Positions 18,556 through 54,285 of a stretch of DNA of 64,000 bases are shown one piece after another; the first letter of the stretch is position 1; every line of letters begins with the position of its first letter. A program made the translations under genes and the position numbers. Location: positions 78,564 through 142,563 of the IMG/VR virus record IMGVR_UViG_2595698353_000001. One strand, written 5' to 3'. The notes under the pieces are model-generated. The model saw nothing but the letters and a program-made list of their open reading frames with translations. It ran no database searches and had not been told where the DNA came from. The DNA is from a virus (Duplodnaviria; Heunggongvirae; Uroviricota; Caudoviricetes).

Positions 18556-18570
18556 AGTGAGGTAGGAAAA

Positions 18571-18894
18571 ATGCAGGGATTCACCATCGCGCTGGAGGGC
18601 GACGAGGGCTTCCAGAAGTTCCTGGCCCGCAAGATCGAGCTTGGAGCCCAGCTGGAGTTCTCGGTCCCTGGCTGGGACGTGACGGGCTTTGTCACCGGCA
18701 TCGACAGTCAGTGGCTGCAGGTGTCCACAGTCCCCAGCCTCGAGCCGGTCCAGATCCGCATCGGATCGGTCCGCTATGTCCGCGACACCGGACGGCGACT
18801 AGAGGATTTGAAGTCCGAGGACGCCGCCGAGGTTCGGAAGTACGCTCGGGCCATCACCGCGAGGGCGAGGCGTGCAAACCAGACCCTGACGTAG
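18571..18894 (+). CDS. hypothetical protein (107 aa)
   Basis: Internal ATG of track ORF 18511-18894, preceded by GAGGTAGG. Confidence 0.55.
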   Translation: MQGFTIALEGDEGFQKFLARKIELGAQLEFSVPGWDVTGFVTGIDSQWLQVSTVPSLEPVQIRIGSVRYVRDTGRRLEDLKSEDAAEVRKYARAITARARRANQTLT

Positions 18895-23909: not shown

Positions 23910-24001
23910 TGCAGTACTCTCGCAGGTGCGCACTAGAGTAAACGCGCATACTCAACCCGGGCGTCCGATGGGCCGCCCTTCCCATAACTTCAGGAGACCC
24001 T

Positions 24002-33712: not shown

Positions 33713-33825
33713 TCGCCGGGTGACCTTGTGTGGTAATCCAAGATCAGGTAGTGTCCTACAGGTACTCAGCGGTTCCCCTACCGCAGAGCGATACCAGTTC
33801 CACACTCAGTGAGGACATTCCACTC

Positions 33826-34875: not shown

Positions 34876-34944
34876 TGTATCAACACCCTTACCACAGGGA
34901 TCCACTAGAGTAAGTACAAATACTCCACACCAGAGAGAAGCACC

Positions 34945-37366: not shown

Positions 37367-37942
37367 ATGCCCGCAACACGCAATTCCGATCCCAACACTT
37401 CGCACGAGGCCGAGAAGTCGGTCCGCATCGGCCCCAGCCGCAAGGACGTCTACCGGACCTTCTTCAAGTACGGCCCGATGACCGACGCCGAGCTCCTCCA
37501 GGCGTACCGGCTGCCCTCCGAGGTGCTCGTCCCGCAGTCCGACTCGGGCCTGCGCAGCCGTCGCGCCGAGCTCGTCGCCCAGGGGATGCTCGAGGCCCGG
37601 GGCATCACGGCGAACGCCACCGGCCGCAAGGTCACCATCTGGGCCATCCCGGGTCGCACCCGGGGCACCCGGAGCCTGGAGAAGGCGATCAAGGAGGCCA
37701 GCACGCACTCTGACGCCCTGCTCGGCAGGCTGCTGGCCTCCGAGCGCGCCCTGAGCGCGGCCAACTCCTCGCTCCTCCGCCAGGAGCACACGATCCTGGA
37801 CATGGGCCGTCGGCTGGACGCCGTCCAGGCCACCTCGAGCCAGTGGCTCAAGGCCCGCCGTCGGGGCAAGTTCATCCAGATCGCGTCGGTCGAGAAGACC
37901 ATCAAGAAGATCGACGACTCGGCGCGCCCGTCGTGTGGCTGA
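37367..37942 (+). CDS. winged-helix DNA-binding protein with coiled-coil C-terminus
   Basis: RKDVYRTFFKYGPMTDAELLQAY...RKVTIWAI resembles MarR/GntR-like wH. Confidence 0.55.
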   Translation: MPATRNSDPNTSHEAEKSVRIGPSRKDVYRTFFKYGPMTDAELLQAYRLPSEVLVPQSDSGLRSRRAELVAQGMLEARGITANATGRKVTIWAIPGRTRGTRSLEKAIKEASTHSDALLGRLLASERALSAANSSLLRQEHTILDMGRRLDAVQATSSQWLKARRRGKFIQIASVEKTIKKIDDSARPSCG

Positions 37943-37943: not shown

Positions 37944-37973
37944 TTGCCCCGGCCCATAGGTGTGCTGTAGTCT
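37944..37973 (+). promoter_or_regulatory. promoter P4 (TTGCCC-N18-TAGTCT) with dyad GCTGTAGTCTATCTACAGC overlapping -10
   Basis: Family architecture, followed by leader CAGCAAGCAAGATCAACCCCTCCAGGAGGA. Confidence 0.5.
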
Positions 37974-38012
37974 ATCTACAGCAAGCAAGATCAACCCCTC
38001 CAGGAGGACACC

Positions 38013-39825: not shown

Positions 39826-40020
39826 GTGAGTCAGCCCGAGCAGGTCGTCCGCGTGGCCGCGAGCAAGCTCCGCGTGGGCATGACGATCGCCGACCTCCCG
39901 ATCGCCCGTGGCGGCGTGATCGACGGCGTCGTGGCCAACGGCAAGACCACCAGCGTGTGGATGGGTGACCGCCTGCGGACCTTCAAGAACACCGTGATGG
40001 TGGCGGTCCTGCCGGACTGA
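39826..40020 (+). CDS. hypothetical protein (64 aa)
   Basis: RBS GGAGG then GTG. Confidence 0.45.
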   Translation: MSQPEQVVRVAASKLRVGMTIADLPIARGGVIDGVVANGKTTSVWMGDRLRTFKNTVMVAVLPD

Positions 40021-40021
40021 T

Positions 40022-40051
40022 TTGCGCTACCCTACATGTGTCTAGTACACT
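40022..40051 (+). promoter_or_regulatory. promoter P5 (TTGCGC-N18-TACACT)
   Basis: Identical hexamers to P2. Leader GCAGCCACTCAACCCCTCCAGGAGGA follows. Confidence 0.5.
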
Positions 40052-40088
40052 GGACGTAGCAGCCACTCAACCCCTCCAGGAGGACCCC

Positions 40089-40361
40089 ATGAACGCCACC
40101 GCCATCACCATCGCCGCCTACCTGCACGAGGTCATCAACACCGAGGCCGACGGCAGCATCGACGAGCTGATCGCCGACGCCGCGCAGGGTGTCGCCTCCC
40201 GATTCTCGAACGGCAAGGCCGGAGCGGCCGAGGCCAAGAAGGTCGCCGACCAGTTCATCCTCGAGCTGGTGCTGGCCTTCACCAACGCCACCACCGAGTG
40301 GACCGTGGCCGACATCGTCGAGGACATCGCCGCCGAGCTCGACGCGCAGGGCTGGCACTGA
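40089..40361 (+). CDS. hypothetical acidic protein (90 aa)
   Basis: Start at ATG after the conserved leader. Track start at 40038 lies in the leader. Confidence 0.55.
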   Translation: MNATAITIAAYLHEVINTEADGSIDELIADAAQGVASRFSNGKAGAAEAKKVADQFILELVLAFTNATTEWTVADIVEDIAAELDAQGWH

Positions 40362-40393
40362 CCCGCATTGATCCCCAACCGAAGGAGAGAGCA

Positions 40394-40627
40394 ATGAGCG
40401 AGAACCCGATCCTGGTTGAGCCCGACTCCCGGGGACGCGTGTCCCTAAGTCAAGTCGGCCGCAAGTCCCGGTACTACCGCGTCACCGAGGAGGCGGGCGG
40501 CATCATCGTCCTCCGCCCCGCCGTCATCCTCACCGTCGACGAGGCGCTCGAGCAGGGCGTGGATCCCGACGTCGTCGAGGAGCTGCTCGGCGGCCGCACG
40601 GTGGAGTCGCCGAGCGCCGATGAGTGA
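40394..40627 (+). CDS. hypothetical protein (77 aa)
   Basis: RBS GAAGGAGAGAG then ATG. In frame with track ORF 40298-40627. Confidence 0.5.
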   Translation: MSENPILVEPDSRGRVSLSQVGRKSRYYRVTEEAGGIIVLRPAVILTVDEALEQGVDPDVVEELLGGRTVESPSADE

Positions 40628-41114
40628 CCAGGAGGTCCTCTTCCTCGACCCCGGCACCGGCGCGCGTGTGCACGCGTCCATCAACCGGGACGGGACGGTC
40701 GCCGTCCACGAGGGCGGCTTCGTTCAGACCCTGACCCAGTTCATGTCCAACGCAAAGGAGCACACGTACGTGATCACCCCCGAATCCACTCTCGCCGAGC
40801 TCGAGGCCGCCCGCGAGGTCGAGGCGCAGAAGCGCGAGAAGGCGCGCACGAAGGCCGTGCGCCACAGCGACCGGATCAAGGTGCTGGACGACCTGATCAA
40901 GAAGGCCAAGCTGCCGAAGGAGCCCGCCAATGGCGGCACCGTGAGGATCGTCCGGCTGCGCCGGAACCTGGTATTCGCGAGTCGACTCGCCAGCGGGAAT
41001 TGGGCCTTGCACGAGCTCGGTCGCCGCCTCTCGTGGGACGAGCTGATGGGCTGGGCCTCGTCCTACGGGTCGTTCACCGTGGAGCGCGTCGTCGCCTTCG
41101 AGGCCATCGCTTGA
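40620..41114 (+). CDS. hypothetical protein (164 aa)
   Basis: ATG overlaps the upstream gene end. Confidence 0.55.
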   Translation: MSDQEVLFLDPGTGARVHASINRDGTVAVHEGGFVQTLTQFMSNAKEHTYVITPESTLAELEAAREVEAQKREKARTKAVRHSDRIKVLDDLIKKAKLPKEPANGGTVRIVRLRRNLVFASRLASGNWALHELGRRLSWDELMGWASSYGSFTVERVVAFEAIA

Positions 41115-41353
41115 TCCCCATCTGGTGGAGCTGGGCTCTCACCACCATCGGTCTCGCCGGGCTGGCGCTCGTGTACGCCCGCCCGGCGAGCCTGATCGGC
41201 CCGCTCATCGGCATCGCTGTGCAGGGGCTGTGGATCGCCTACGCCGTCGCCACCCTGCAGTTCGGATTCATCGTCTCGGCCCTCGGTTACGGGGCCGTCA
41301 ATATCTACGGGCTGCGCATGCGGCGGCTCGCGAAGGAGAGTCAGAGTGCCTGA
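41111..41353 (+). CDS. small integral membrane protein (about 80 aa, 2-3 TM)
   Basis: LIPIWWSWALTTIGLAGLALVY...IAVQGLWIAYAVATLQFGFIVSALGYGAV. TTG overlaps the upstream stop. Start is uncertain. Confidence 0.4.
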   Translation: MIPIWWSWALTTIGLAGLALVYARPASLIGPLIGIAVQGLWIAYAVATLQFGFIVSALGYGAVNIYGLRMRRLAKESQSA

Positions 41354-41894
41354 GTACCCCCGGACCGACCTGCTGTCGGCCACGGACACCTTCCTGGAGG
41401 CAGCGGACCACCCGTTCCCCGAGGTGCCGTCCGCGCCGTCGGTGGAGCTGTTCGCGTCCCGCCTGGCGATGATCACCGAGGAGTTCCGCGAGCTGTTCGC
41501 ATCGGTCGGGCTCACCCCGCTCGACGTCGCCTTCGCGGCGTCCATTACGGACCACGACCAGCTCACCGAGCAGCTGGCACTCCAGCTCGAGGGTCAGCAG
41601 ATCGACCTCGCCGAGGCGGTCGACGCCTTCGACGACATCATCGTCGTGGCGCACGGCGGTGCGCGGGAGATCGCGGGTCCGGCCACCAACGAGGCCGCCT
41701 GGGAGGTGGCGCGGGCCAACCTGGACAAGATCGTGGACGGCAAGGTCGTGCGCACGCCGAAGGGCAAGATCACCAAGCCGGAGGGGCACCGGGCTGCCGA
41801 CGTCGAGAGCGTGCTGCGCCGGTACGGCATGGATCAGCGCCACGACGTGCTCGTGCGCACCGACATGCCCGTCGCCGAGGAGGCCTCGAAGTGA
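41346..41894 (+). CDS. hypothetical protein, possibly MazG-like all-alpha NTP pyrophosphohydrolase
   Basis: ITEEFRELFASVG...AVDAFDDIIVVAHG resembles the EExxE/D acidic helices. Low confidence. Confidence 0.45.
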   Translation: MPEYPRTDLLSATDTFLEAADHPFPEVPSAPSVELFASRLAMITEEFRELFASVGLTPLDVAFAASITDHDQLTEQLALQLEGQQIDLAEAVDAFDDIIVVAHGGAREIAGPATNEAAWEVARANLDKIVDGKVVRTPKGKITKPEGHRAADVESVLRRYGMDQRHDVLVRTDMPVAEEASK

Positions 41895-42208
41895 AGATCA
41901 CGCTGCCCACGGGCGTTGTCATCGAGAGCGACCGGGTCATCCATATCGACGGGGTCGAGATCCGCGAGTCTGCTCCGGCCGCTCCGGCCGCTCCGGAGGT
42001 CAGGAGGCCCGCGATCGAGCTGTCCATGCAGGGAGCGCAGACGCTCCAGTACGTCCGCGACAGCGAGGGTCCGGTCTCGACCACCGATGTCCGCCGCTCC
42101 CTGGCCATCGGTAGCGAGACGGCGCGCTGCCGACTCAAGAAGCTCGTCCTGCAGGGCCTGATCATTCAGGTCTCCCCGGGCCGGTACGTCGCCGCGAAGA
42201 CCCGCTAG
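41891..42208 (+). CDS. MKITLP-family winged-helix protein, paralog 1
   Basis: N-terminus MKITLPTGVVIESD is shared with 42521. C-terminal RLKKLVLQGLIIQVSPGRYV is a wH. Confidence 0.55.
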   Translation: MKITLPTGVVIESDRVIHIDGVEIRESAPAAPAAPEVRRPAIELSMQGAQTLQYVRDSEGPVSTTDVRRSLAIGSETARCRLKKLVLQGLIIQVSPGRYVAAKTR

Positions 42209-42218
42209 AGCAAGGCGT

Positions 42219-42248
42219 TTGCACTAACCTACAGGTGTCCTGTAGGCT
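42219..42248 (+). promoter_or_regulatory. promoter P6 (TTGCAC-N18-TAGGCT) with perfect dyad CCTACAGGTGTCCTGTAGG
   Basis: Family architecture, followed by leader GCAGCAAGAAACCAACACTCCAGGAGG. Confidence 0.5.
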
Positions 42249-42284
42249 AGACGCAGCAAGAAACCAACACTCCAGGAGGCCCCC

Positions 42285-42497
42285 ATGGCAAAGCGCACCG
42301 CCACCCCCGAGATCGAGGTCAACCGACGCGATCTCGTGCGCACCGAGGGCGTGACCCTCGACGGTGATCCCGCGAAGATCAGCGGAGCCCGTCTCGACTT
42401 CCCGGTCATCGTCTCCCGTTCCGGGAAGGCCGTGGAGTACTCGTGGCTCACCGTCGCACGCAAGGTCGCCGACGGCCGCCTCGACTTCCAGTCCTGA
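42285..42497 (+). CDS. hypothetical protein (70 aa)
   Basis: Promoter plus leader upstream. Confidence 0.55.
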   Translation: MAKRTATPEIEVNRRDLVRTEGVTLDGDPAKISGARLDFPVIVSRSGKAVEYSWLTVARKVADGRLDFQS

Positions 42498-42520
42498 AAC
42501 CCAAGAGAGGTTCCACCAGC

Positions 42521-42886
42521 ATGAAGATCACCCTTCCCAGCGGCGTCGTCATCGAGTCGGACGAGGGAGTCAATGTCGGCGGCGTCGAGATCGCCCCGAT
42601 CAAGCTGAAGCAGATTCCGAAGCCGCCGGAGGCGCAGGACTCCGACGTCACAGCGGTGCAGGCCCAGGCTCTTCGGTCGGAGGAGGCCCGGCTGGGCAAG
42701 GTCTTGCGCGAGACGCTCGCGATGCTCCGCGAGTACGACAGCCCCGTCTCCGTCTCGCATGTTGCGCAGCTGATGGACATCAACTGTGCGACGTCCAGCC
42801 GTCGCCTGATCGCGCTCACCGACACCGGCCTGGTGGAGCGCATCCGTCGCGGGATCTACCGGACCGTGAAGTTCGCGGAGGTGTAG
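42521..42886 (+). CDS. MKITLP-family winged-helix protein, paralog 2
   Basis: MKITLPSGVVIESDEG. C-terminal SSRRLIALTDTGLVERIRRGIYR is a wH. Start at internal ATG of track ORF 42443-42886, after AAGAGAGG. Confidence 0.55.
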   Translation: MKITLPSGVVIESDEGVNVGGVEIAPIKLKQIPKPPEAQDSDVTAVQAQALRSEEARLGKVLRETLAMLREYDSPVSVSHVAQLMDINCATSSRRLIALTDTGLVERIRRGIYRTVKFAEV

Positions 42887-43711
42887 GTGCTCATCGCCAT
42901 CGTCTTGATCCTGATCGCCGTCTCTGGCACGGCGATCGGGGTCCAGACGCAGAGGCTCATCGTGCGGAACCGGGCCGCGCAGCTGGAGGCGGCCGAGAAC
43001 GACTACCGGCGCGCTCTGCTGGCCGACCTCAAGCCCGAGGACGTCCAGTGGCTGCACAACACCGGGGCCGTCTGGGTCAGCTCCGAGCGGGCCGACCTGG
43101 ACCCGGTGAAGGTGCTCGAGGCCGCCGCCGAGGAGGAGCGGGCCAAGCAGGAGGCCGAACAGAAGCGTCAGCTCGAGCTCGCGATGGCCGAGCTGAATGC
43201 CAAGCGAACGGCCGCCCGTCAGGCCGAGGCGTCGCGGCTCAAGATGGAGGCCGCCAAGGCAAGGCAGGAGCGAGATGAGTGGGAGCGAAAGCAGGCGGCC
43301 GCCAACGCACTGGCGCAGCTCCGGAAGAGCAGCGAAAAGAGCCGCCATTCGGATCAGCACTACATGTACATCAATCGCTGGGGGGACAGCGAAGGCTGCA
43401 GCTGCGACCACTGCTACGAAGACTGGGCCGATGATGACGGGGAGCGGTCCTGGTCCGCGCTCGACCCCAAGACGGAGAAGGGGTTCAGCGACCTCCGAGC
43501 CGAGATCCGGGGGTCTCAGCACCCGGTCGTCATCGCCATCGACAGAGCGACCGGCGAGGCCTCGGTCAAGCGCCCCCTGGACGTCCGAAAGGGCCAGGAG
43601 TACGTCATCAAGACCGACAACAAGCCGCACCTCAAGTACCACCCGATCCCGGACAGCTGGAAGCAGGCCCTCGAACCGCCGAGGCCCATCGACTACGACC
43701 CCTACGACTAG
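42887..43711 (+). CDS. membrane-anchored coiled-coil protein (274 aa)
   Basis: N-terminal TM MLIAIVLILIAVSGTAIG. Long charged EAEQKRQLELAMAEL helix. CSCDHC motif. Confidence 0.55.
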   Translation: MLIAIVLILIAVSGTAIGVQTQRLIVRNRAAQLEAAENDYRRALLADLKPEDVQWLHNTGAVWVSSERADLDPVKVLEAAAEEERAKQEAEQKRQLELAMAELNAKRTAARQAEASRLKMEAAKARQERDEWERKQAAANALAQLRKSSEKSRHSDQHYMYINRWGDSEGCSCDHCYEDWADDDGERSWSALDPKTEKGFSDLRAEIRGSQHPVVIAIDRATGEASVKRPLDVRKGQEYVIKTDNKPHLKYHPIPDSWKQALEPPRPIDYDPYD

Positions 43712-43720
43712 GAGCACCCC

Positions 43721-43933
43721 ATGCCCGCCAACCATCTCATCGTCCCGACGTCCAAACACTTCTTCCGGGGGCAGGAGGCCGCCCGGAACGACTACCGCAA
43801 GGCCTCCGACGTCGACCCGAATGACGACCTGCTCGGCCGGATGCACCCCAGCTTCGCCGCCGGTTACCGCCAGGAGCTCCGTGAGCTGAAGGCCATCGCC
43901 GCGTCCCAGTCCATCCCCGCCTACGCCAGCTAG
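43721..43933 (+). CDS. hypothetical protein (70 aa)
   Basis: RBS GGAG upstream. Confidence 0.45.
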   Translation: MPANHLIVPTSKHFFRGQEAARNDYRKASDVDPNDDLLGRMHPSFAAGYRQELRELKAIAASQSIPAYAS

Positions 43934-43940
43934 GAGCCCC

Positions 43941-44348
43941 GTGCCCACACCACCGCCCCTGATCATCGCTGTCCCCGACGAGTCGGCCATGCCGGTCGTC
44001 CCCGAGGACGAGCGCGACATGCGCTACCAGCGGTACCGGAAGTACGAGACCACCTGGGGCGAGGTCGACATGCTGCACCGGGCGCGCCACCACCTGCACG
44101 AGGCTCGGCGTCGCGTCTCGGGCAGCCACTCCAGAATCGGCGACTTCCTCATGTACGGAGAGATGGTGCCCGACGCCGCACGCCAGACGCTGGCGAGCGA
44201 GGCGCGCAGCCTAGCCGATGCGGCAGCCAGCTACCAGATCGTGTCGATCCTGCGCGCAGTGTTCGCCGAGTCGAACCCGGAGCTCGCTCGCCGCTGGGAT
44301 CAGCTGATGGATCCCGGCGCGTCACTGCCCAAAAAGCCGCAGAGCTGA
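43941..44348 (+). CDS. hypothetical protein (135 aa)
   Basis: RBS GGAGCCCC then GTG. Confidence 0.5.
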   Translation: MPTPPPLIIAVPDESAMPVVPEDERDMRYQRYRKYETTWGEVDMLHRARHHLHEARRRVSGSHSRIGDFLMYGEMVPDAARQTLASEARSLADAAASYQIVSILRAVFAESNPELARRWDQLMDPGASLPKKPQS

Positions 44349-44391
44349 TATAGTACTCATACAGCCCAGCAACAGCCTCAAGGAGGAGCGC

Positions 44392-44847
44392 ATGACCGCA
44401 ATCGCGAAGGTCCCGTTCAAGTCTCCCTGGTCGAGCGGGGAGTGGACCAGGCACGTCGACCACGACGGCCACGTCCACATCCACCACGACGGACGACTGC
44501 TCACGCTCTACACCAAGTCCTGGAGCGACGACGCCCGTGTCGACGAGGAGGGCAACGAGCGCGAGCCCGACGAGGAGGTCACCGAGGTCTACTACGACCC
44601 GACCCCGGTCTTCGTCGTCGAGGAGCTCCGCCGCCGGGGCGTCGGGTTCGGCTCCTATGCCACCGAGGTCGGCGACATCGCCGAGACCCTCAACGGAACC
44701 GACGAGTTCTATGTCGCCGGATACGGGCGTCCGGTGGCGCGCGAGGAGCAGGTCAGCGCCTTCCTCCACGGTTTCACCCCGAAGCAGCTCGAGATCATCA
44801 ACGCCCACGTCGACGCCCGCCCGGGCACCCTGAAGGAGACCGCATGA
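44392..44847 (+). CDS. hypothetical protein (151 aa)
   Basis: Leader CAGCCTCAAGGAGGAGCGC then ATG. Confidence 0.55.
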   Translation: MTAIAKVPFKSPWSSGEWTRHVDHDGHVHIHHDGRLLTLYTKSWSDDARVDEEGNEREPDEEVTEVYYDPTPVFVVEELRRRGVGFGSYATEVGDIAETLNGTDEFYVAGYGRPVAREEQVSAFLHGFTPKQLEIINAHVDARPGTLKETA

Positions 44848-45587
44848 CCATCGAGGGCCTCAAGCTTGCCGGTTTCGACATCGAGTCGACCGGACCCAAC
44901 CCGCTGAAGGACCGCATCGTCACGGCCAACCTCACGTATGCGGAGGTCGTCGACGGCGAGCTGAAGGTGACCGGCTCGCAGAGCTGGCTGCTCGACCCGG
45001 AGATCGAGATCCCGGCAGAGGCCGCCGCGATCCACGGGATCAGCACCGAGCAGGCGCAGGCCGATGGCGGCGACTACGAAGAGGGCGTGTTCGAGATCGC
45101 CGACTCCATCGCGAGCGCGAACAAGGACGGCCGCACCGTCGTCATCTTCAACGCCAACTTCGACCTGACCATGCTCGCGTCCGAGTACCGGCGCGTGAGC
45201 GGCAACGATGCCCCGCTGCCGCCGGATCTCATCGTCGATCCGTACGTGATCGACAAGGGCGTCGACAAGTTCCGCAAGGGCAGCCGCAAGCTCGTCGACG
45301 TGGCCCGGCACTACGGCATCGAGCTCGTCGGCGCGCACACCGCCGAGGGTGACGTCGCGGCCACGATCCAGCTGGCCGTCAAGGTCCTGCAGATCCCCAA
45401 GGTCGCAGCCAAGTTCCCCGACGAGATCATGGCGACGCAGGTCCTCTCGTACCGCCTGCAGCAGGAGGGCCTGGCCGAGTACTGGCGCAAGAAGGCCTCG
45501 CGCATGCAGAACACCGACCCTGAGGAGGCCGCCGAGCTCCGCGAGCGCGCCGACGGCGTCCGTACGGACTGGCCGGTCGCTATGTAG
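44844..45587 (+). CDS. DnaQ-like DEDDh 3'-5' exonuclease (Pol III epsilon-like)
   Basis: Exo I GFDIESTG. Exo II VIFNANFDLTML. Exo III HTAEGDVAAT. ATG overlaps the upstream stop. Confidence 0.8.
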   Translation: MTIEGLKLAGFDIESTGPNPLKDRIVTANLTYAEVVDGELKVTGSQSWLLDPEIEIPAEAAAIHGISTEQAQADGGDYEEGVFEIADSIASANKDGRTVVIFNANFDLTMLASEYRRVSGNDAPLPPDLIVDPYVIDKGVDKFRKGSRKLVDVARHYGIELVGAHTAEGDVAATIQLAVKVLQIPKVAAKFPDEIMATQVLSYRLQQEGLAEYWRKKASRMQNTDPEEAAELRERADGVRTDWPVAM

Positions 45588-45737
45588 AGACCACCCCCTG
45601 GCGGCGTTGCCGCGCGCCGGGGGTGTTGAGCGAGGGCGAGGATTCTGGGTAGGGGTAGCCGGAGTCCTCGCCCCACCGCTATCCGCAGGACGACAACAGC
45701 TCGAGGAGCGTGCATCTGGAATACCGAGGAGATCACC

Positions 45738-45989
45738 GTGACCGAGAACCAATCGAAGCGCATCCCGGCGAAGACGTCGTGGAATCTGTTCCACGCGCTG
45801 TCCAAGGGCCACCTGGACGCCGCCGCACAGGACTACTACCTGGACCGAGGCATAGAGCGCCCCCGGGACGCCGACGGCTACCCAGTGCTGCCCACGAAGG
45901 CACCGCAGCGGGCCATCGACTACGCCCGTGATCGCGGCTTCCCCCTGCCCGGAGAGAACGAGCCCGCAGTCAGGTTCCCAAACGCTTGA
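45738..45989 (+). CDS. hypothetical protein (83 aa)
   Basis: RBS GGAG then GTG. Confidence 0.45.
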   Translation: MTENQSKRIPAKTSWNLFHALSKGHLDAAAQDYYLDRGIERPRDADGYPVLPTKAPQRAIDYARDRGFPLPGENEPAVRFPNA

Positions 45990-46016
45990 CCAGCGCACCT
46001 ACAGGTGTGCTACATT
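45986..46016 (+). promoter_or_regulatory. putative promoter (TTGACC-N19-TACATT) with ACAGGTGTGCT element
   Basis: Family-like. Followed by about 120-nt GC-rich leader. Confidence 0.4.
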
Positions 46017-46074
46017 AAACCCACACCAAGACCAACTGACTGCCGGAGCGTAGTGGGGAACTGCGCTACCGGCC

Positions 46075-46103
46075 GGGGCGGCGGGCTCGCGACCCGCCGC
46101 CCC
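46075..46103 (+). promoter_or_regulatory. perfect 11-bp GC hairpin inside a long 5' UTR
   Basis: GGGGCGGCGGG, loop ctcgcga, CCCGCCGCCCC. No U tract. Confidence 0.45.
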
Positions 46104-46139
46104 ACCCCGCGTCACCAACAGAGAAGGGATCGACCAGCA

Positions 46140-46301
46140 ATGAGCTCTACCCCGATCTATGACGAACTGAAGGCCGAAGTCCGAGCCCGCCAGCAGCTCG
46201 GGCAGGTGGGCTTCGAGGCGAAGACCCCGGAGCCGGAGCCGGAGCCCGTGCCGACTGGACCGACGTGGCAGGACGGCATCTGGCGACGGCGCAACCGATG
46301 A
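46140..46301 (+). CDS. small hypothetical protein (53 aa)
   Basis: ATG after AGAAGGGA. In frame with track ORF 46005-46301, whose N-terminus covers the hairpin. Confidence 0.4.
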   Translation: MSSTPIYDELKAEVRARQQLGQVGFEAKTPEPEPEPVPTGPTWQDGIWRRRNR

Positions 46302-46729
46302 TCATCACCACCCTGCTCACCCTGGCCTTCCAGGCGGGCATCCTGACTTTGATCGTCAAGACCGGGCGGGCGCAGCGCCGGAACCGCGAGGCCGACCAGA
46401 AGGCCATGGCGGCCGCCATCGCCACGCTGACCGAGCAATTCGACGAGAAGCTGCTGCAGGTCTACATGACCGACGAGGAGCGGGCCAAGTACGGCCTGCC
46501 GACGATCGGCGGCGCGCTGCCCGCCCTGGCGGAGTCTGCCACGCGCCGGGCGATCAAGCCCGCATGTAAAGGACCGCATGCTTGGAGCGCCCGGTACCGG
46601 GATGAGCCGAGGTTCCCAGCAAACAGGCAGCTCGCCGACAGCGACGGCAAAGCGCACGTCAGGATCTGCATCGAGTGCGAGATCCACCAGGTCTGGGATA
46701 AGGCCGCGAACGACTGGGCATCCGACTGA
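46298..46729 (+). CDS. membrane protein (143 aa, N-terminal TM)
   Basis: MIITTLLTLAFQAGILTLIV. ATG overlaps the upstream stop. Confidence 0.5.
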   Translation: MIITTLLTLAFQAGILTLIVKTGRAQRRNREADQKAMAAAIATLTEQFDEKLLQVYMTDEERAKYGLPTIGGALPALAESATRRAIKPACKGPHAWSARYRDEPRFPANRQLADSDGKAHVRICIECEIHQVWDKAANDWASD

Positions 46730-47172
46730 TGCCCGGCCCGCTGTGGGAGGTCCCCAGCGCTGCGCCGATCGGCCGCCTCCGCATCGCCCCCGACAAGGTG
46801 ATGCCCGGCTGGTTCGATCCGCATGGCCCCTGGGACTACCCGCGCGAACGCAGCGAGGAGTACGACACCGAGCTCGAGGTCCTCAACTGGTGCTCGTTCC
46901 TGCACATTGCTGCGTCGGCGGCCGACATCGCCCGGCAGAAGGGCATGACTCGCTGGGACATGGCCCGCGCGATCTACTGGGACGACAGCCCGATGAGCGG
47001 GGAGGAGTGGCTGGAGGCCGAGCGGTTCATCACCGCGATGCAGAACGGCCTGACCTCCAGCGGTGTCCCCTTCGGATGGCCGGTCGTCGAGTACGCGACG
47101 GCGCTGGGCGTCATGATCGGCGCAGAGGTCGCGGACTTCATGGCGGACGAGTTAACCGGCAGCCTCCGGTGA
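46729..47172 (+). CDS. hypothetical protein (147 aa)
   Basis: ATG overlaps the upstream stop. Confidence 0.5.
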   Translation: MPGPLWEVPSAAPIGRLRIAPDKVMPGWFDPHGPWDYPRERSEEYDTELEVLNWCSFLHIAASAADIARQKGMTRWDMARAIYWDDSPMSGEEWLEAERFITAMQNGLTSSGVPFGWPVVEYATALGVMIGAEVADFMADELTGSLR

Positions 47173-47399
47173 GCCTGCGCCCGCAGAACGAGTTCGAGCG
47201 TCGGCTGCTGGCCGAAGCGAGACGGATGGGCTTCGAGGCGACCAGGACCGGCCGGATGCACCTGAAGTTCAGGCACCCCGACCCACGCGTCCAGCTGGCG
47301 TACTCTCCGGGGACGCCGTCAGACCATCGGTCGCTGCAGAACTCGCTGGCTATGCTGCGGCGCAAGATCCGACAGGCCGACCTGCCTCCCCGGCCCTAG
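47169..47399 (+). CDS. hypothetical basic protein (about 76 aa)
   Basis: GTG overlaps the upstream stop. In frame with track ORF 46578-47399. Weak. Confidence 0.35.
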   Translation: MSLRPQNEFERRLLAEARRMGFEATRTGRMHLKFRHPDPRVQLAYSPGTPSDHRSLQNSLAMLRRKIRQADLPPRP

Positions 47400-47450
47400 C
47401 AGGTCTACAGGTAAGCTATATTCAGTGTGTAAGCGATCCAGAGGAGAGAG

Positions 47451-48095
47451 ATGACCGTGGCGATCGACGCCGACGAGTGCGTCTGCGGGGACTGCCGGGA
47501 CTGCCATCGGGCCATGTTCGGCGAGACCCGGCCGGTGGCTCCCGTCGTGCTCTCCGAGGCGGCCCGGGCCATCCTGGCAGAACCGCCACGGCCCCCGCAG
47601 GCCCGCCCCCGACCCGCAGCTGTCGTGCAGCCGAACGAGCCCGCCATGAAGCCGTGCTCCGAGGCCGACTGCTCGACGAAGACCCGGCACGAGAGCGGCC
47701 TGTGCGCCGCGCATCGACCGGCCCCACCCGCGTCGGTCAACCCCGAGGACCTGGTGCCGGTTCCGTGCACCGAGTGCGGGGAGATGCGCATCGTCATCAA
47801 GTGGGGGCGCACCTGGGCGCTCGCGGGCGAGGACGGCCTGTGCGAGCTGTGCTTCGACCGCCGCAAGAACGCCGAGAAGCTGCGGCAGTCCATCGCGGGA
47901 ATCAAGGTCCTCTCGCCTGCCCAGCTGACCCGGATCAGGCGCATGAGCGAGCGTGTGATGCGGGACGGCCGCCCCTTCCACCCGCACGCGCACAAGCACG
48001 GCACCGCAGGCATCTTCTCGAACTGGGGCTGCCGCTGCAGTACGTGTCGGGACGGGAAGCGGGACTACCGGCTCGAGAAGGCGCGAGAGCAGTGA
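47451..48095 (+). CDS. Cys-rich multi-zinc-ribbon protein (214 aa)
   Basis: CVCGDCRDC, CSEADCSTKTRHESGLCAAH, CTECGEMRI...CELC, GCRCSTC. RBS GAGGAGAGAG. Confidence 0.55.
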   Translation: MTVAIDADECVCGDCRDCHRAMFGETRPVAPVVLSEAARAILAEPPRPPQARPRPAAVVQPNEPAMKPCSEADCSTKTRHESGLCAAHRPAPPASVNPEDLVPVPCTECGEMRIVIKWGRTWALAGEDGLCELCFDRRKNAEKLRQSIAGIKVLSPAQLTRIRRMSERVMRDGRPFHPHAHKHGTAGIFSNWGCRCSTCRDGKRDYRLEKAREQ

Positions 48096-48123
48096 CCGAC
48101 AACCAGAACAGGGAGACCGAACG

Positions 48124-48903
48124 ATGATCGACCGCAACGAGATCGACGCGAACTGGCTGCTCAAGGTGCTCGCCACACCGAACGAGCACCTCGACGACTT
48201 CGCTGAGGAGGTCGCGAAGGCGATCCGCACTTCGGGCTACTGGCGCAGCGCGTCCACCATGCCCCCTGCGTCCCAGGACCTGCGCTCGGCCCAGGACCTG
48301 CTGGCGCGCATCGCCGCGCACTTCGGCGGCCAGGTCACCCCGTTCGTCGCTGGTGGCGTCCTGCGCGGTCCGCTGCCGACCAAGCCCGGCACCACGATCC
48401 GGGCGCGGGTGCTCGAGTGGCCGGGCTGCACCTACACCGTCCCCGTTCGCGAGCCGGTGGTGCTGACCCGCAACCTGTATGGGCACTGGGTCGGGGTGGA
48501 GCCCCAGATCGTCGTCGACGCCGACCTGACCCAGTACATCGTCGCCTTCGAGGAGATCGAGCCGGTCGGCCCGCCGTGGCCGCAGCTGAGCGATGTCCCG
48601 GTCGGGCAGTGGGTGCTCGATGCCACCGGCAACCTGCTGTACCGGCGCTCGGTGACCGACCGCGTGCGGATCTACCGCGTCGCGTCGCCGAGCTCGGCCT
48701 CGACCGGCCCATACCGCCCGGTCCCCGAGGGCCACGTGTTCGAGACGGTCGACGAGATCCCGATCGGCCGCAAGCTGCGCGACCGCAACGGCAACATCTG
48801 CTGGCGCGTCGACGACGGCATCGTCTACAGCGGTGCGTCGACGGAGGCCCCGCGCCCGATGGCTCCGTTCGTGTCGTTCGACATGCCGGACGGCGACGAG
48901 TGA
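48124..48903 (+). CDS. hypothetical protein (259 aa)
   Basis: N-terminal EIDANW motif shared with 49265. Confidence 0.55.
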   Translation: MIDRNEIDANWLLKVLATPNEHLDDFAEEVAKAIRTSGYWRSASTMPPASQDLRSAQDLLARIAAHFGGQVTPFVAGGVLRGPLPTKPGTTIRARVLEWPGCTYTVPVREPVVLTRNLYGHWVGVEPQIVVDADLTQYIVAFEEIEPVGPPWPQLSDVPVGQWVLDATGNLLYRRSVTDRVRIYRVASPSSASTGPYRPVPEGHVFETVDEIPIGRKLRDRNGNICWRVDDGIVYSGASTEAPRPMAPFVSFDMPDGDE

Positions 48904-48905
48904 GT

Positions 48906-48935
48906 TTGCCAAGAGCTACAGCACTGCTGTAGTCT
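48906..48935 (+). promoter_or_regulatory. promoter P7 (TTGCCA-N18-TAGTCT) with perfect dyad CTACAGCACTGCTGTAG
   Basis: Family architecture. Leader CACCACACCAACACTCAAGGAGG. Confidence 0.5.
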
Positions 48936-48968
48936 AGCTACACCACACCAACACTCAAGGAGGCCATC

Positions 48969-49268
48969 ATGGCGGAGTACACCAAGGGCCAGGCTCGACT
49001 GCTCAACAAGATCAACGCAACGGCCGTCGACCTGCGCGACCGGTACGGCACCATCGCCGGACGGGCCAAGGCCGACCTGCAGAGTCTGGATTCGGGCTAC
49101 CGTCCGGCCGGGATCCCCGGGGAGCTGCTGGCCGAGATCATCGCCCTGCAGGCCGAGCTCGAGGCGTTCGCGGTCACCGCTAGCGACCTCGGCATCACCG
49201 GCGGCGACGTGCGGCTCGCCCTCTCCGACCCCGACTTCAAGGCCGAGCCCATCGAGGAGGACGCGTGA
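48969..49268 (+). CDS. hypothetical protein (99 aa)
   Basis: Promoter plus leader upstream. Confidence 0.55.
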   Translation: MAEYTKGQARLLNKINATAVDLRDRYGTIAGRAKADLQSLDSGYRPAGIPGELLAEIIALQAELEAFAVTASDLGITGGDVRLALSDPDFKAEPIEEDA

Positions 49269-49789
49269 TCGTCGACATCGACCAGGAGACCATCGACGCC
49301 AACTGGGCGTACAAGGCCATCGCCGACGAGTTCCCAGACGCATGCCCGCCGGAGCGGATCGCCCCCGGCGTCTATCTGGGGTGGGGAATCGAGCTCGAGA
49401 TCAAGGCCCTGATCAAGACCGACTGCCCGTTCTCGCCGTGGTTCGACTACCGCAACCGCGACCGCTGGCCGTACGAGCGGGGTAGCGAGGAGGGCATGCG
49501 CGCGCTCGCGGAGGCCTTCCGGGAGGAGGGGCGACCGAGCGACTACGGCGTCTGCGACGGCTGGGAGCAGGTCATCCAGACCTGGCCGCGTGTGCTCTCG
49601 GACCCGCGCCCCCTCATCATCGGCATCGCGCCGGTGCACCGCAAGCATCAGTCCGAGCGCCAGGGCTGGCGCTGGGAGAAGCATGGTAAGTACATCGGCA
49701 ACCAGCGGTCGTTCGCGGACTATCTGTACGACGAGCCCGAGATCGACGTCGTGTACACATTCAGCATCTACGAGGTGGCGATCCCGTGA
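49265..49789 (+). CDS. hypothetical protein (174 aa)
   Basis: GTG overlaps the upstream stop. N-terminal ETIDANW. Confidence 0.55.
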   Translation: MIVDIDQETIDANWAYKAIADEFPDACPPERIAPGVYLGWGIELEIKALIKTDCPFSPWFDYRNRDRWPYERGSEEGMRALAEAFREEGRPSDYGVCDGWEQVIQTWPRVLSDPRPLIIGIAPVHRKHQSERQGWRWEKHGKYIGNQRSFADYLYDEPEIDVVYTFSIYEVAIP

Positions 49790-50124
49790 GCGCAGCAGAG
49801 ATCAAGCGGCGGGCGGCCGAGACCTACGGCGCTGCGTACGAGTGGTTCCACTACCAGGCCGACATCCCGGAGCGGCTGCGGCTGATCCGCACCGCGCTCG
49901 TCGGCGGCAAGGACGACGTCCGCAACGGTGTCGACGACCGCTGGTTCCAGCACGTCGCGGCCGTGAACGAGCTCCATGGGCGCATCTTGAGCTACGAGGA
50001 GGCGGCGGACCGGCTGGAGGGCGGCTATGACCCCGAGAGCCTCCAGAAGCTCCTGCGTATCCAGGCCAAGGGACTGGAGCGCGGCATCGAGCGCCGCACC
50101 AACCGATTCCGAGAGGGGAAGTAG
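49786..50124 (+). CDS. hypothetical protein (112 aa)
   Basis: GTG overlaps the upstream stop. Confidence 0.5.
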   Translation: MSAAEIKRRAAETYGAAYEWFHYQADIPERLRLIRTALVGGKDDVRNGVDDRWFQHVAAVNELHGRILSYEEAADRLEGGYDPESLQKLLRIQAKGLERGIERRTNRFREGK

Positions 50125-50438
50125 TGACCGACACGCACCTGCACACCGTCACGATCACCGGCACCGAGGACTCGCCGAAGATCGAGTTCGTCTGTCACGG
50201 CGACCGCGACAGCGACTGCCACAGCTACCCGGACTGCCGCTGCGAGAGGTGGGACCGTGACGATCACGAGCATCCGTTCGTCCCGCACGACCAGTGCTGG
50301 ATGCAGGCCTGGTTCGACGAGGGTGCCACGGATCCGATGGCCGAGACGCTCGACGAGTGCCCCGACCTGAAGGTCGGCATGTCCGGCCCGATCGAGTCCG
50401 TCTTTCTGTTCGACTACATCGAGTGGGAGTTCGCGTGA
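50124..50438 (+). CDS. Cys/His-rich small protein (104 aa)
   Basis: FVCHGDRDSDCHSYPDCRCERW. GTG overlaps the upstream stop. Confidence 0.5.
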   Translation: MTDTHLHTVTITGTEDSPKIEFVCHGDRDSDCHSYPDCRCERWDRDDHEHPFVPHDQCWMQAWFDEGATDPMAETLDECPDLKVGMSGPIESVFLFDYIEWEFA

Positions 50439-50731
50439 CCGCCGCACTGATCGAGAAGGCCCGCGCGGCCACCGCGCAGCACCCCGAGGTCGCTACCGAG
50501 GAGGAGCTGGACTCCCTGCCGCCCGGCTCGCTGGTGCGGGTGCACCACAGCCGGGGCTCCGAGCTCGGCAAGGTCTTCGAGCGCTCCGGGTGGCGCAGCT
50601 GCTGGACCGAGCTGGACCCGTCCGACCGCTACGACGGCGAGAATAGCGCCGACAGCGGGGACATCCTGGCGCTGCTCCGGTTCTCGTCCCACGACAAGGT
50701 CACCGTCATCTACGTGCCTGAGGAGAACTGA
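50435..50731 (+). CDS. hypothetical protein (98 aa)
   Basis: GTG overlaps the upstream stop. In frame with track ORF 50294-50731. Confidence 0.45.
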   Translation: MTAALIEKARAATAQHPEVATEEELDSLPPGSLVRVHHSRGSELGKVFERSGWRSCWTELDPSDRYDGENSADSGDILALLRFSSHDKVTVIYVPEEN

Positions 50732-51009
50732 TGGACGCGAAGAGGCGCCTGCAGCTGGTGCATGACCAGCTCGACATGCTCGAGAGGGTGGGCGGCCCGT
50801 TCGGAACCGTGAGCGCGGGCGACGTCATCCGGGTCATCCGTGACGTCGCCGGTCCGCGCATCGAGGAGGCGACGTGCGTCCAGCCGGACTGCGGCAAGAC
50901 CATCACCCGCGCCGTCGGCCGCAGCGACTGGGAGCACGAGGGCGGCTACGGCCTGTGTTTCGACCTTGACCACGAGGGCCGGTACGCCTGGCCCGGACAC
51001 GACGACTGA
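50731..51009 (+). CDS. hypothetical protein (92 aa)
   Basis: ATG overlaps the upstream stop. Confidence 0.5.
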   Translation: MDAKRRLQLVHDQLDMLERVGGPFGTVSAGDVIRVIRDVAGPRIEEATCVQPDCGKTITRAVGRSDWEHEGGYGLCFDLDHEGRYAWPGHDD

Positions 51010-51021
51010 AAGAGAGCACCA

Positions 51022-51327
51022 ATGTCTGACCACAACGCCATCGACGCCGAGAAGATGGCCGAGTACACCACGTACGCCGAGCGCGTGCCGCTGCTCCACG
51101 GCACCGAGCAGCCGCCGAGCTACGCCGAACTGGCGGTGGTGGCCCTGGTCGACCACATCCAGGTGATCGAGAAGCGCACCCGCGTGCTCGCCGCCTTCAA
51201 GTCCCAGGTCGACAAGTCGTTCGACGACCTCCGCCTGAACGCGGGGCCGAAGCAGTACGTCGCCGTCGACGACCTGCTCACGTTCCACAACAAGGCGCTC
51301 GAGGCGGCCGTCGAGGCGGCGAAGTAG
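51022..51327 (+). CDS. hypothetical protein (101 aa)
   Basis: RBS GAAAGAGAG. Confidence 0.5.
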   Translation: MSDHNAIDAEKMAEYTTYAERVPLLHGTEQPPSYAELAVVALVDHIQVIEKRTRVLAAFKSQVDKSFDDLRLNAGPKQYVAVDDLLTFHNKALEAAVEAAK

Positions 51328-51383
51328 CGCCCGAGTGGGTGGTCGACCGACCGGTAACGACCGGGGTGCTCTAAGGTTGGAGC

Positions 51384-51905
51384 ATGACTTTCTGTGAATG
51401 TGGATGCGGCGGGGCCATTGCCCCCACTGATGACCGTGGCAGGCCTCGCCGCTTCCTGCCCCACCACAACACCCGGCAGCCTCGCCCCGGAAGCAGGAAG
51501 AGGTGGGAGGACTACCCCGATCCGGTCCGCGACGAGGTGACCGGATGCCTCCGCTGGCAGGGCACCCACAATCATCAGGGGTATGGCCGCATCGGGAGGG
51601 TGCCCGTACAGAACCTGGCATTTGAGCGGGCTGGGGGCGTGATCCCGAAGGGGTGGGTCGTCGACCACGTGTATGACCGTGGGTGCCGATACCACGACTG
51701 TGTGGAGCCGTCCCACCTGGAGGCAGTGACTCCGCAGGAGAACAGCCGCCGAGCCGGGAGGGTGTCCGGCGGCGGAGAGTGGCAGTCGGAGCGCGACAGC
51801 TGCGTGAACGGGCACGAGTTCACCGAGGACAACACCCGATGGCAGGGGAAGACGCGGATCTGCCGCGCCTGCGTTAGAGACAGGGTGCGCAAGCATCGAG
51901 CTTGA
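51384..51905 (+). CDS. HNH endonuclease
   Basis: VVDHVYDRGCRYHDCVEPSHLEAVTPQEN plus a C-terminal CxxC zinc ribbon. Confidence 0.7.
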   Translation: MTFCECGCGGAIAPTDDRGRPRRFLPHHNTRQPRPGSRKRWEDYPDPVRDEVTGCLRWQGTHNHQGYGRIGRVPVQNLAFERAGGVIPKGWVVDHVYDRGCRYHDCVEPSHLEAVTPQENSRRAGRVSGGGEWQSERDSCVNGHEFTEDNTRWQGKTRICRACVRDRVRKHRA

Positions 51906-51933
51906 CCCGGTGACCACCACCTTTGTCTTCGAC

Positions 51934-51963
51934 TTGCGCTCACCCACATGTGTCGAGTAAGCT
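51934..51963 (+). promoter_or_regulatory. promoter P8 (TTGCGC-N18-TAAGCT)
   Basis: Family architecture. Leader CGAAGCAAGCCACCAACACTCAAGGAG (the GCAAGC part matches the P2 leader). Confidence 0.5.
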
Positions 51964-51998
51964 AGACGAAGCAAGCCACCAACACTCAAGGAGACGCC

Positions 51999-52223
51999 AT
52001 GAGCACCATCGCCACCTTCCACTACGCAGACCAGAGCATCACCGTCGCCGAGGTCAAGGTTGACGAGGACGGCAACATCGACGAGCTGCGCGAGATCGAG
52101 AAGATCTCGGTCGAGGACTTCTCCTCGCTCAAGGAGGCCCTCAACGACAGCGGCTACGCGGTCATCGGCGAGTGGCGCGAGGGCGAGGATGGCCCGGACG
52201 ACCTGGTCGCCACCGTCTTCTGA
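51999..52223 (+). CDS. hypothetical acidic protein (74 aa)
   Basis: Promoter plus leader upstream. Confidence 0.5.
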   Translation: MSTIATFHYADQSITVAEVKVDEDGNIDELREIEKISVEDFSSLKEALNDSGYAVIGEWREGEDGPDDLVATVF

Positions 52224-54160: not shown

Positions 54161-54285
54161 TCAGTCACCACGGAGCCCCGGCCATAACGGCCGGGGCTTG
54201 CGTGTGTCCGGGGCCGGATCGTGTCTGGTAGCCCGGGGGTCGTGTCAAGGGGTAGTCCACGCCGGAGTACCCCAGGAGCGCCGCA

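Follow-up and report, generated by a model that had tools for sequence, protein, structure and literature searches.

Operator-like palindromes within a repeated promoter cassette of Rhodococcus phage E3

Inverted repeats of the form CTACAG-N5-CTGTAG stand in front of several genes of Rhodococcus phage E3, and these dyads are real and far beyond chance. We propose, tentatively, that they are symmetric variants of a conserved E3 promoter cassette, and their reading as operators is plausible. What is new here is a family of conserved phage promoters in which an operator-like palindrome is embedded, a variant of known promoter and operator types. The DNA analysed, called the window below, is a stretch of 64,000 nucleotides (nt) from IMG/VR record IMGVR_UViG_2595698353_000001 (positions 78,564 to 142,563), in which an original prediction had singled out five promoter regions as a candidate repressor regulon. 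Window positions 40000-52000 are 100% identical to E3 (HM114277 / NC_021347, 142,563 base pairs (bp), host R. equi), and the window makes up the final 64 kilobases (kb) of the E3 record, whose coordinates equal window coordinates plus 78,563. Among Rhodococcus phages E3, a myovirus, is a singleton; the isolate nearest to it, Finch, shares 20.7% of genes, and the same study predicts a lytic lifestyle for Finch, not for E3 (PMC13313380). The public E3 record holds coding-sequence (CDS) annotation only, with no regulatory features, and our literature search found no published description of E3 promoters. E3 itself is reportedly lytic according to the original phage description, and neither an integrase nor an immunity repressor is present among its 222 annotated features.

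Dyads within a repeated promoter cassette

Re-reading of the sequence placed four of the five dyads exactly where they had been reported and shifted the fifth by 2 nt, from 13732-13749 to 13730-13747:

48916-48932, dyad CTACAGCACTGCTGTAG
42228-42246, dyad CCTACAGGTGTCCTGTAGG
37964-37982, dyad GCTGTAGTCTATCTACAGC
9176-9192, dyad CTATAGCTATGCTGTAG
13730-13747, dyad CCACAGTGGGCCTGTAGG, inside the annotated gp137 CDS and just 5' of the gp138 ATG at 13756

Four single half-sites, reported at 45999, 33755, 47403 and 14486, were likewise found with the sequence and position claimed for them.

Exact CTACAG-N(1-8)-CTGTAG occurs twice in the window as compared to 0.01 expected. A motif count against a shuffled control, which the original prediction had named as a check, gave six window matches to CTAYAG-N5-CTRTAG with at most one mismatch (0.08 expected; none of 100 shuffles reached six). 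When the whole genome was scanned with at most one mismatch and spacers of 0-12 allowed, N5 was the spacing in six of six convergent dyads and in five of six divergent dyads of the CTGTAG-N5-CTACAG type, and only two matches had any other spacing. Every dyad with at most one mismatch lies directly 5' of a start codon, with none elsewhere in 142.5 kb, and the close matches genome-wide end in a -10-like TAGnnT. The hexamers CTACAG, CTGTAG and CTATAG show the same preference: 26 of their 54 occurrences fall in non-coding DNA, which is 5.4% of the genome, and of 13 hexamer pairs no more than 40 nt apart, seven are spaced at exactly 11 nt, all seven in front of genes. A generic listing of inverted repeats was dominated by GC-rich coding palindromes, and no Rfam family matched in the window. 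Restriction-site avoidance was rejected as an explanation: CTRYAG is an SfcI-type site, yet CTGCAG is abundant (107 copies). To our knowledge none of the sites of LexA, HrcA/CIRCE, HspR/HAIR, DasR, IdeR, NrdR, AmtR, McbR, BldD or the PafBC RecA-NDp motif fits.

Four of the five dyads lie inside one repeated module of ~70 nt, in the intergenic regions listed below. Its form is TTGCnn-N5-C-YAYAK-gtGTc-nwG-TAnnCT-aGACGaAGCAAGC..CCTCCAGGAGG-N5-ATG, and its conserved leader with ribosome-binding site, optional bases in brackets, reads (a)GACG(a)AGCAAGC..ACCAAC(C)CCTC(C)AGGAGG-N5-ATG. The window has eight copies and the genome ~16, and every copy is intergenic and lies on the coding strand. A position weight matrix built from the eight window copies scored them at 37-52 bits versus 7.6 for the next best site (128 kb, both strands), and a degenerate family pattern returned eight matches versus 0.00 expected. 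In the rest of E3, a sequence-only covariance model recovered four further strong copies, before gp12, gp80, gp96 and gp102, and four weaker ones, before gp10, gp20, gp29 and gp46. A TTG -35 element, an 18-nt spacer and a TAnnnT -10 element are common to 15 of 15 aligned members. A promoter and terminator scanner built on the E. coli consensus misses the cassettes (TTGCGC matches the E. coli -35 at only 3/6 positions). The dyads thus exist as predicted, but 'five promoter regions' understates their setting, as they are a subset of a family of ~16 promoters. Nor do they appear as independent operators in varied promoters: four of the five share one cassette, the left arm is family-wide and the right arm is a -10 variant. 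What stands is that they are non-random, promoter-embedded elements.

The -10 region reads CTG-TAGnnT in 6 of 15 members (class B) and nAG-TA(C/A)nCT or CAC-TA(C/A)nCT in 9 of 15 (class A). The window cassettes are as follows:

48906-48968, plus strand: gp192 cassette, class B; -35 TTGCCA at 48906-48911, -10 TAGTCT at 48930-48935, AAGGAGG leader, ATG at 48969; left half-site CTACAG at 48916-48921, right half-site CTGTAG at 48927-48932, third half-site CTACAC at 48938-48943
42219-42284, plus strand: gp180 cassette, class B, the best family match (52 bits); -35 TTGCAC at 42219-42224, -10 TAGGCT at 42243-42248, ATG at 42285; dyad CCTACAGG-TGT-CCTGTAGG at 42228-42246
9166-9233, plus strand: gp132 cassette, class B; -35 TTGCAT, CTATAG at 9176-9181 and CTGTAG at 9187-9192 (5/6), -10 TAGCAT at 9190-9195
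37944-38012, plus strand: gp170 cassette, class B with a weak in-register dyad; CCATAG at 37954-37959, CTGTAG at 37965-37970, -10 TAGTCT at 37968-37973; third half-site CTACAG at 37976-37981, which with the right arm makes up the divergent dyad of the original prediction
5234-5301, plus strand: gp126 cassette, class A, no dyad; TTGCGT, CCATAT-GTGTC-CAC, -10 TACACT
6886-6952, plus strand: gp129 cassette, class A; TTGCGC, CTATAG-GCGTC-AAG, -10 TACACT; a hairpin and T-run terminator immediately upstream
40022-40088, plus strand: gp174 cassette, class A; TTGCGC, CTACAT-GTGTC-TAG, -10 TACACT
51934-51998, plus strand: gp200 cassette, class A; TTGCGC, CCACAT-GTGTC-GAG, -10 TAAGCT

The distance from the end of the -10 element to the ATG is 33-39 nt in these eight cassettes, and two of the eight have a separate terminator upstream. 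Behind the cassettes lie small non-structural open reading frames (ORFs), nearly all without a recognisable family; for 16 of 20 scanned proteins no Pfam family passed its cutoff. The structural and lysis genes carry another upstream motif, CATCAATWGG, and not the cassette. Together, these features suggest that the cassettes belong to a single temporal class, which is most likely early and served by the host polymerase.

Anatomy and conservation of the symmetry

Alignment of the 15 members revealed a third conserved element within the spacer, C-YAYAK-gtGTC at -26 to -16, whose information content matches that of the -35 and -10 elements; C-26, A-24 and A-22 are invariant, and T-17 is present in 14 of 15 members. 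The left half-site, CTACAG (-27 to -22), is the consensus of the family-wide element C-Y-A-Y-A-K, and the right half-site, CTGTAG (-16 to -11), is the class-B variant of the -10 region. As had been proposed, the dyads overlap spacer and -10 element: they extend from -27 to -11, between a -35-like TTGCnn and a -10-like TAGnnT of predicted promoters whose spacer is 18 nt long. The dyad core measures 17 bp (6+5+6), and complementarity runs on inward or outward to 8-bp arms at gp180 and gp192; at gp192 the palindrome is perfect including the inner CA/TG, with 8-bp arms around a single central C. Perfect 6+6 dyads are present at gp180, gp192, gp29 and gp46, while gp132 pairs at 5/6 positions, gp170 at 4/6 and the other nine members at 1-4/6. 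The dyad at 37964 is in another register than the rest, joining the -10 region to the transcription-start position; the in-register dyad of that promoter (gp170) is the 4/6 pair CCATAG...CTGTAG.

A third half-site, again 11 nt further on, stands at the predicted transcription start of gp170, gp192, gp138, gp93 and gp56, the last two of which lie outside the cassette family. Half-sites also occur in the non-cassette promoters of gp187.5, gp190, gp163, gp93 and gp56, which have other -35 elements and leaders. Those in the window, with the gp138 site and one partial element, are:

13730-13758, plus strand: gp138 site, CCACAG-tgggc-CTGTAG; -10 TAGGCT at 13744-13749, the gp138 ATG 6 nt on, no -35
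45986-46016, plus strand: gp187.5 promoter, not a full cassette; TTGACC-N7-CTACAGGTGTGC-TACATT, one left-type half-site
47405-47422, plus strand: gp190 promoter; CTACAGGTAAGC-TATATT, one half-site, no clear -35
33726-33766, plus strand: gp163 promoter; TTGTGT-N17-TAGTGT, with CTACAG at 33756-33761 at the predicted transcription start
14486-14504, plus strand: gp140 upstream element ACAGGTAAGCTGTAATAAG; partial half-site only (ACAG)

At gp187.5 and gp190 the left-type half-site is 2 nt nearer to the -10 element than in the cassette family. A leaderless geometry, TAGGnT-N6-7-ATG, recurs at gp29, gp46 and the separate gp138 promoter, and the last of these is probably leaderless, judging from this spacing. 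The gene behind it, gp138 (13756-14148), encodes an anti-Thoeris Tad4 homologue that matches over its full length (Pfam PF25186, E=4.6e-26, alignment starting at residue 1) and overlaps the annotated 3' end of gp137 by 119 nt; that tail of gp137 is poorly conserved and of low complexity.

Three features argue that the symmetry is more than a by-product, namely the 8-bp arms, the 17-bp size with its 11-bp phasing, and the third half-site. A number of observations weigh against an operator: firstly, shuffling right arms among members gives P=0.046 for at least four perfect dyads, or 0.10 with the near-duplicates gp29 and gp46 merged; secondly, the left-arm invariants C, A and A have no mirror on the right side in class A; thirdly, the right arm shares bases with the -10 hexamer, and at gp56, gp68 and gp104 CTGTAG serves as a -10 element with no left arm. 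Because arm pairing is barely above random and total arm complementarity has P=0.22 by the same shuffling, the symmetry is largely as expected from independent assortment of two promoter sub-elements. Evidence on the same side also came from the comparison with relatives.

Among GenBank phages, megablast and blastn, together with tblastn using gp181, found no close relative of E3. A protein search with gp181 yielded one homologue (56% identity), on the 141,916-bp Logan contig SRR26188684_812, which is a newly found, unpublished close relative of the singleton E3. Two of its loci were compared, L101 (record 31592-51969) and L102 (record 60760-82706); they run collinear with window ~1-23,640 and ~32,450-52,900, the aligned blocks being 75-96% identical in nucleotide sequence, and ten orthologous genes show a third-codon divergence of 11.6%. 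Three patterns for the cassette found none in IMG/VR, the 23 and 4 matches being single chance matches; none was found among 66 matches in JGI metagenomes, and Finch carries no E3 motif.

The close relative has cassettes at orthologous positions. In six orthologous cassettes, substitutions affect 0/24 bases of the -35 TTGC, 11/36 (31%) at positions 5-10, 2/36 in the left arm, 1/30 in the middle and 1/54 in the right arm and -10 element, so that arms, middle and -10 element together changed at 4/120 bases as compared to 11/36 at positions 5-10. The gp180 dyad is 100% identical, with four of the six bases just upstream (positions 5-10) changed, and the gp192 dyad keeps both arms, its sole change being the central C to G; the original prediction had held that absence of the dyads from homologous promoters in close relatives would imply chance symmetry, and these two are present. 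At the gp138 site the right arm and -10 element are kept and the left arm changes from CCACAG to CAACAG. The 35-nt core of gp200 is identical; the gp190 hexamer is kept with bases changed on both sides; and the gp187.5 promoter, with CTATAG and TATATT, drives an extra ORF of 242 amino acids. The gp132 cassette and its gene are swapped as a unit for a class-A cassette with an unrelated ORF, and at gp174 the core is that of another cassette variant with the orthologous gene kept. Since no homologue of gp28, the route to the gp29/gp46 region of the close relative, was found, the perfect dyads of gp29 and gp46 could not be compared.

Three results of this comparison add to the case against an operator. 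The gp170 half-site changes from CTGTAG to CTGTAA, which breaks it and keeps a valid -10 element (TAATCT); the whole block from -26 to -7 is equally conserved in the non-palindromic class A (for example gp129 and gp200), and conservation therefore does not separate the dyad from the core promoter; and a distant relative (L103, helicase 52% identical) has TTGACA-N17/18-TACAaT with a similar leader, a conserved but different spacer (cACAGTGAGTG or CCAATGAGCG) and no dyad.

These observations suit a reading in which RNA polymerase holoenzyme, with host sigma-A alone or with a phage modifier that is not sequence-specific, reads the whole block from -36 to -2; the cassettes would then be very strong early promoters spread by duplication, and the palindrome a by-product of the left element and a -10 variant. 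We consider this possible, if doubtful. It would account for the equal conservation of classes A and B between E3 and its close relative, for arm pairing barely above random, for the use of CTGTAG and CTATAG as -10 elements in promoters with no left arm, for a gp170 change that spares the -10 element and not the half-site, and for the conserved, different spacer that the distant relative has beside consensus TTGACA/TACAAT; the 11-nt step from the -10 element to the transcription start follows from promoter geometry. Extended conserved early-promoter consensus sequences are, moreover, common in large lytic phages. By contrast, sigma-70-type holoenzymes are not known to read ~10 specific bases at -26 to -16, and invariant spacer bases beside the fast-changing positions 5-10 point to base-specific contacts. 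The left hexamer at shifted distances (gp187.5, gp190) and at the gp163 start suits a separable site better, and 6-bp cores would not require four perfect 17-bp palindromes, of which two have 8-bp arms. If polymerase alone reads the block, the finding is an ordinary conserved phage promoter family.

The class-B regions also fold into hairpins of 7-8 bp (-12.6 to -17.2 kcal/mol; z ~ -3 for gp180, gp46 and gp132), which raises the possibility that the symmetry acts in the nucleic acid itself, as read-through RNA hairpins for processing or attenuation, as DNA cruciforms, or as recombination hot-spots that shuffle cassette-plus-ORF modules in the manner of T4 PeSL. Several indels and replacements between E3 and the close relative do lie next to cassettes (gp179, gp192, the gp132 module, the additional ORF behind the gp187.5 promoter and the HNH region at gp199), and the gp174 core has been patched by another variant. 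These structural explanations are nonetheless very unlikely: the hairpins are confined to class B, lie inside the promoter and lack a U-tract; class A folds no better than background yet shares all else; the z-scores of gp192 and gp29 are not significant; and arms show no compensatory changes, the single change being in the loop or centre. Only 4-5 of ~16 indel or replacement junctions touch a cassette, which is near expectation, and PeSL-like shuffling as the main role was rejected on this unconvincing enrichment.

The symmetric promoters offer possible starts on the other strand. The minus strand of the gp132 promoter (9175-9204) reads CTGACA-N18-TATAGT, 10/12 to the E. coli consensus, and the reverse strand of gp180 offers TAGGTT, so antisense or divergent initiation from them is possible.

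A candidate operator and its possible binders

In the operator reading, the spacer element C-YAYAK-gtGTC would be bound by a regulator with sequence specificity, most likely one that the phage encodes. At six or seven promoters (gp29, gp46, gp132, gp138, gp170, gp180, gp192) a -10 region of CTGTAG, the inverted left element, would complete a 17-bp palindrome CTACAG-N5-CTGTAG with half-site centres 11 bp apart, the size of a lambda operator. A helix-turn-helix (HTH) dimer on the class-B palindrome would occupy -27 to -11 and keep RNA polymerase out, so that occupied class-B promoters might be switched off, for instance when early transcription gives way to later transcription; where a third phased half-site exists, occupation would reach +1. 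The most plausible binders would be regulators whose DNA-binding domain is unchanged in the close relative, namely gp137, gp134 and gp169.

The original prediction had named six proteins as candidate binders. Since gp179 and gp135 are missing from the relative in which the dyads are kept and gp181 has diverged there, gp137, gp134 and gp169 are left as candidates:

13008-13874, plus strand: gp137, winged-helix protein, candidate binder; HTH region (~residues 121-236) ~99% identical in the close relative
37367-37942, plus strand: gp169, candidate binder; N-terminal ~107 amino acids (phrog_1123) ~93% identical in the close relative by visual count between the two sequences; the gene stops 1 nt short of the gp170 cassette
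10157-10408, minus strand: gp134, small HTH protein, candidate binder; HTH identical in the close relative
42521-42886, plus strand: gp181, winged-helix protein, weak candidate; 56% identical in the close relative

The best dyad, that of gp180, is flanked by the winged-helix paralogues gp179 (41891-42208) and gp181, and the predicted recognition helix of gp181 has diverged in the close relative with the adjacent dyad unchanged. A sequence search of the PDB for solved-structure relatives of gp169 and gp181 returned nothing significant.

Lambda-type operators are 17-bp palindromes for HTH dimer repressors, and the repressor of the Streptomyces phage phiC31 binds 17-bp conserved inverted repeats (CIRs) at early promoters. 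The E3 element resembles both in being a 17-bp pseudo-palindrome with an odd central base and half-site centres about one helical turn apart, in having several copies per genome that each overlap core promoter elements, and in that the sole substitution inside a perfect copy falls at the uncontacted centre. The inverted repeat also recurs at several sites with fixed spacing, as is expected of an operator for an HTH dimer (all six convergent dyads). In contrast to these operators, the E3 sites belong to a phage taken as lytic with no annotated integrase or immunity repressor, sit in a repeated cassette whose non-palindromic members are equally conserved, and have candidate binders only.

Cluster A stoperators, the actinophage system that the sites had been said to recall, are asymmetric 13-14-bp sites of a monomeric immunity repressor in temperate phages, which stand in one orientation across transcribed regions and stop elongation (PMC9283540, PMC6550527). 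The E3 sites share with them only the character of a short, many-copy actinobacteriophage motif proposed to serve a single phage regulator; they are palindromic, number ~6-9 and occur at promoters alone, in a phage with no annotated integrase or immunity repressor, and the resemblance fails. T4-type PeSL cassettes combine a promoter with a terminator stem-loop (PMC2839356, PMC4122927). Like them, the E3 cassettes are repeated composite promoter modules that precede small ORFs in the variable parts of a large lytic myovirus genome ('early' being our assignment for E3), with some indels and replacements relative to the close relative starting or ending at a cassette and one core converted to another variant; unlike them, E3 has its stem-loop inside the promoter with no U-tract, and most of its cassettes have none.

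In basic plan, the E3 -35 TTGC, 18-nt spacer and -10 TA(C/G/A)nCT, and the leaderless geometry of gp29, gp46 and gp138, agree with actinobacterial housekeeping promoters. Promoters of this sigma-A / HrdB type read TTGnnn-N17-18-TAnnnT, including leaderless TAnnnT-N6-7-ATG. Ordinary ones have no conserved spacer, whereas five to six spacer positions in E3 are invariant or nearly so. A MerR-type operator, with a dyad in an over-long spacer of 19-20 bp, was ruled out by the 18-nt spacer of every member. Alternatively, a phage activator on the spacer element might compensate the non-consensus -35 (TTGCGC), as at a T4 MotA box with sigma appropriation or at a class II site, and the cassettes would be middle rather than early promoters. 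Consistent with this, the -35 is only TTGC plus variable bases and the spacer element lies just downstream of it; E3 also encodes a small protein with a sigma region-4-like domain only (gp160; Pfam Sigma70_r4_2, E=2.2e-5, 24.4 bits versus a curated cutoff of 25.7) and a WhiB-like protein (gp75). We nevertheless judge an activator decidedly unlikely: the class-B site reaches over the -10 element, which suits repression; the 18-nt spacer with TTG and TAnnnT looks sufficient for actinobacterial sigma-A; and no MotA or AsiA homologue turned up, with no search aimed at them made. A T4 middle promoter has a MotA box at about -30 in place of the -35, with MotA and AsiA proteins; the E3 cassettes have a partial -35 (TTGC).

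The operator reading can be taken further, to a strictly lytic actinobacterial myovirus in which a global shut-off repressor acts on a subset of early promoters through 11-bp-phased CTRYAG hexamers in the promoter core, two to three per promoter in alternating orientation, with the Tad4 homologue among the regulated genes. This extended scheme seems rather unlikely; if true, it would be a lytic-phage counterpart of the multi-site operators (phiC31 CIRs, Cluster A stoperators) that have so far been described in temperate actinophages. An operator of any kind would open a way into the temporal control of genes in large lytic actinophages, a subject on which almost nothing is known, and would supply Rhodococcus and Mycobacterium genetics with a repressible promoter that is compact and portable. 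Operator or not, the ~16 cassettes define probable early transcription units of E3 and mark small ORFs, including the Tad4 anti-defence gene, as likely host-takeover genes, and the close relative shows gain, loss and exchange of cassette-plus-ORF modules.

Other promoter-like motifs and neighbouring genes

The motif of the structural and lysis genes, gCATCAATWGGy (variants CTCAATAGGC and CATTAAGTGG), lies ~25-35 nt before the start codon in the E3 record at 26-66 kb, outside the window. It precedes gp67, gp76, gp84, gp86, gp87, gp98 (endolysin), gp100 and gp111 (tail sheath), and could represent a class of late promoters, which may be recognised by way of the sigma-like phage protein gp160. 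The third promoter-like type reads (c)acTAGAGTaa and lacks an obvious -35. It occurs at 12908-12913, 23934-23939 and 34906-34911 and at ~3750 of the E3 record, before gp137, gp153 (SSB), gp164 and gp6; several of these are replication-region genes, and the motif is kept in the close relative at gp164. Upstream of gp204, which encodes a virion protein, three copies of CGTGTC cluster at 54200-54270; two of the three have GTAG(C/T)CC 3-6 nt further on (tCGTGTCtgGTAGCCC, tCGTGTCaagggGTAGTCC), and the repeats resemble the GTGTC-nnG-TAG of the cassette core but have no -35.

The most strongly over-represented non-coding words are the pre-start motifs ACCAACACTCAAGGAG and CAACCCCTCCAGGAGG, present in at least 20 intergenic regions (for example 48951-48964, 51981-51994 and 42267-42279); this spread indicates that a conserved translation-initiation leader reaches beyond the cassette family. 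AACACTC occurs ten times in non-coding and never in coding DNA. ACAGGT has ten copies on the E3 plus strand, seven of them intergenic and three inside gp136, the one minus-strand gene, and 44 on the other strand; since it is essentially absent from sense-strand coding sequence, intergenic word enrichment must be judged against codon-usage bias.

Finch (MG962366, L098-L100) has a motif of its own, unrelated to the cassette, before several small ORFs: cTGTAACG-N17/18-GA(C/T)ATAC(C/A)(T/G)..GAAGG, as at record 112,340-112,390 and 119,290-119,340, with the short form TGTAACG-N17-GAYATAC. The loci L103-L105 represent a second, more distant lineage. In two relatives (L102, L103/L105) Tad4 homologues occupy the corresponding position, and the distant one uses TAGAGT-N7-ATG. 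The close relative lacks E3 gp127/127.5, gp130, gp135, gp144, gp151 (HNH), gp179, gp192 and gp196 and has extra ORFs, and its orthologue (L102 4105-4428) of E3 gp146 (18511-18894, annotated as hypothetical) carries a precomputed match to Pfam PF23874 (Phage_Hfq).

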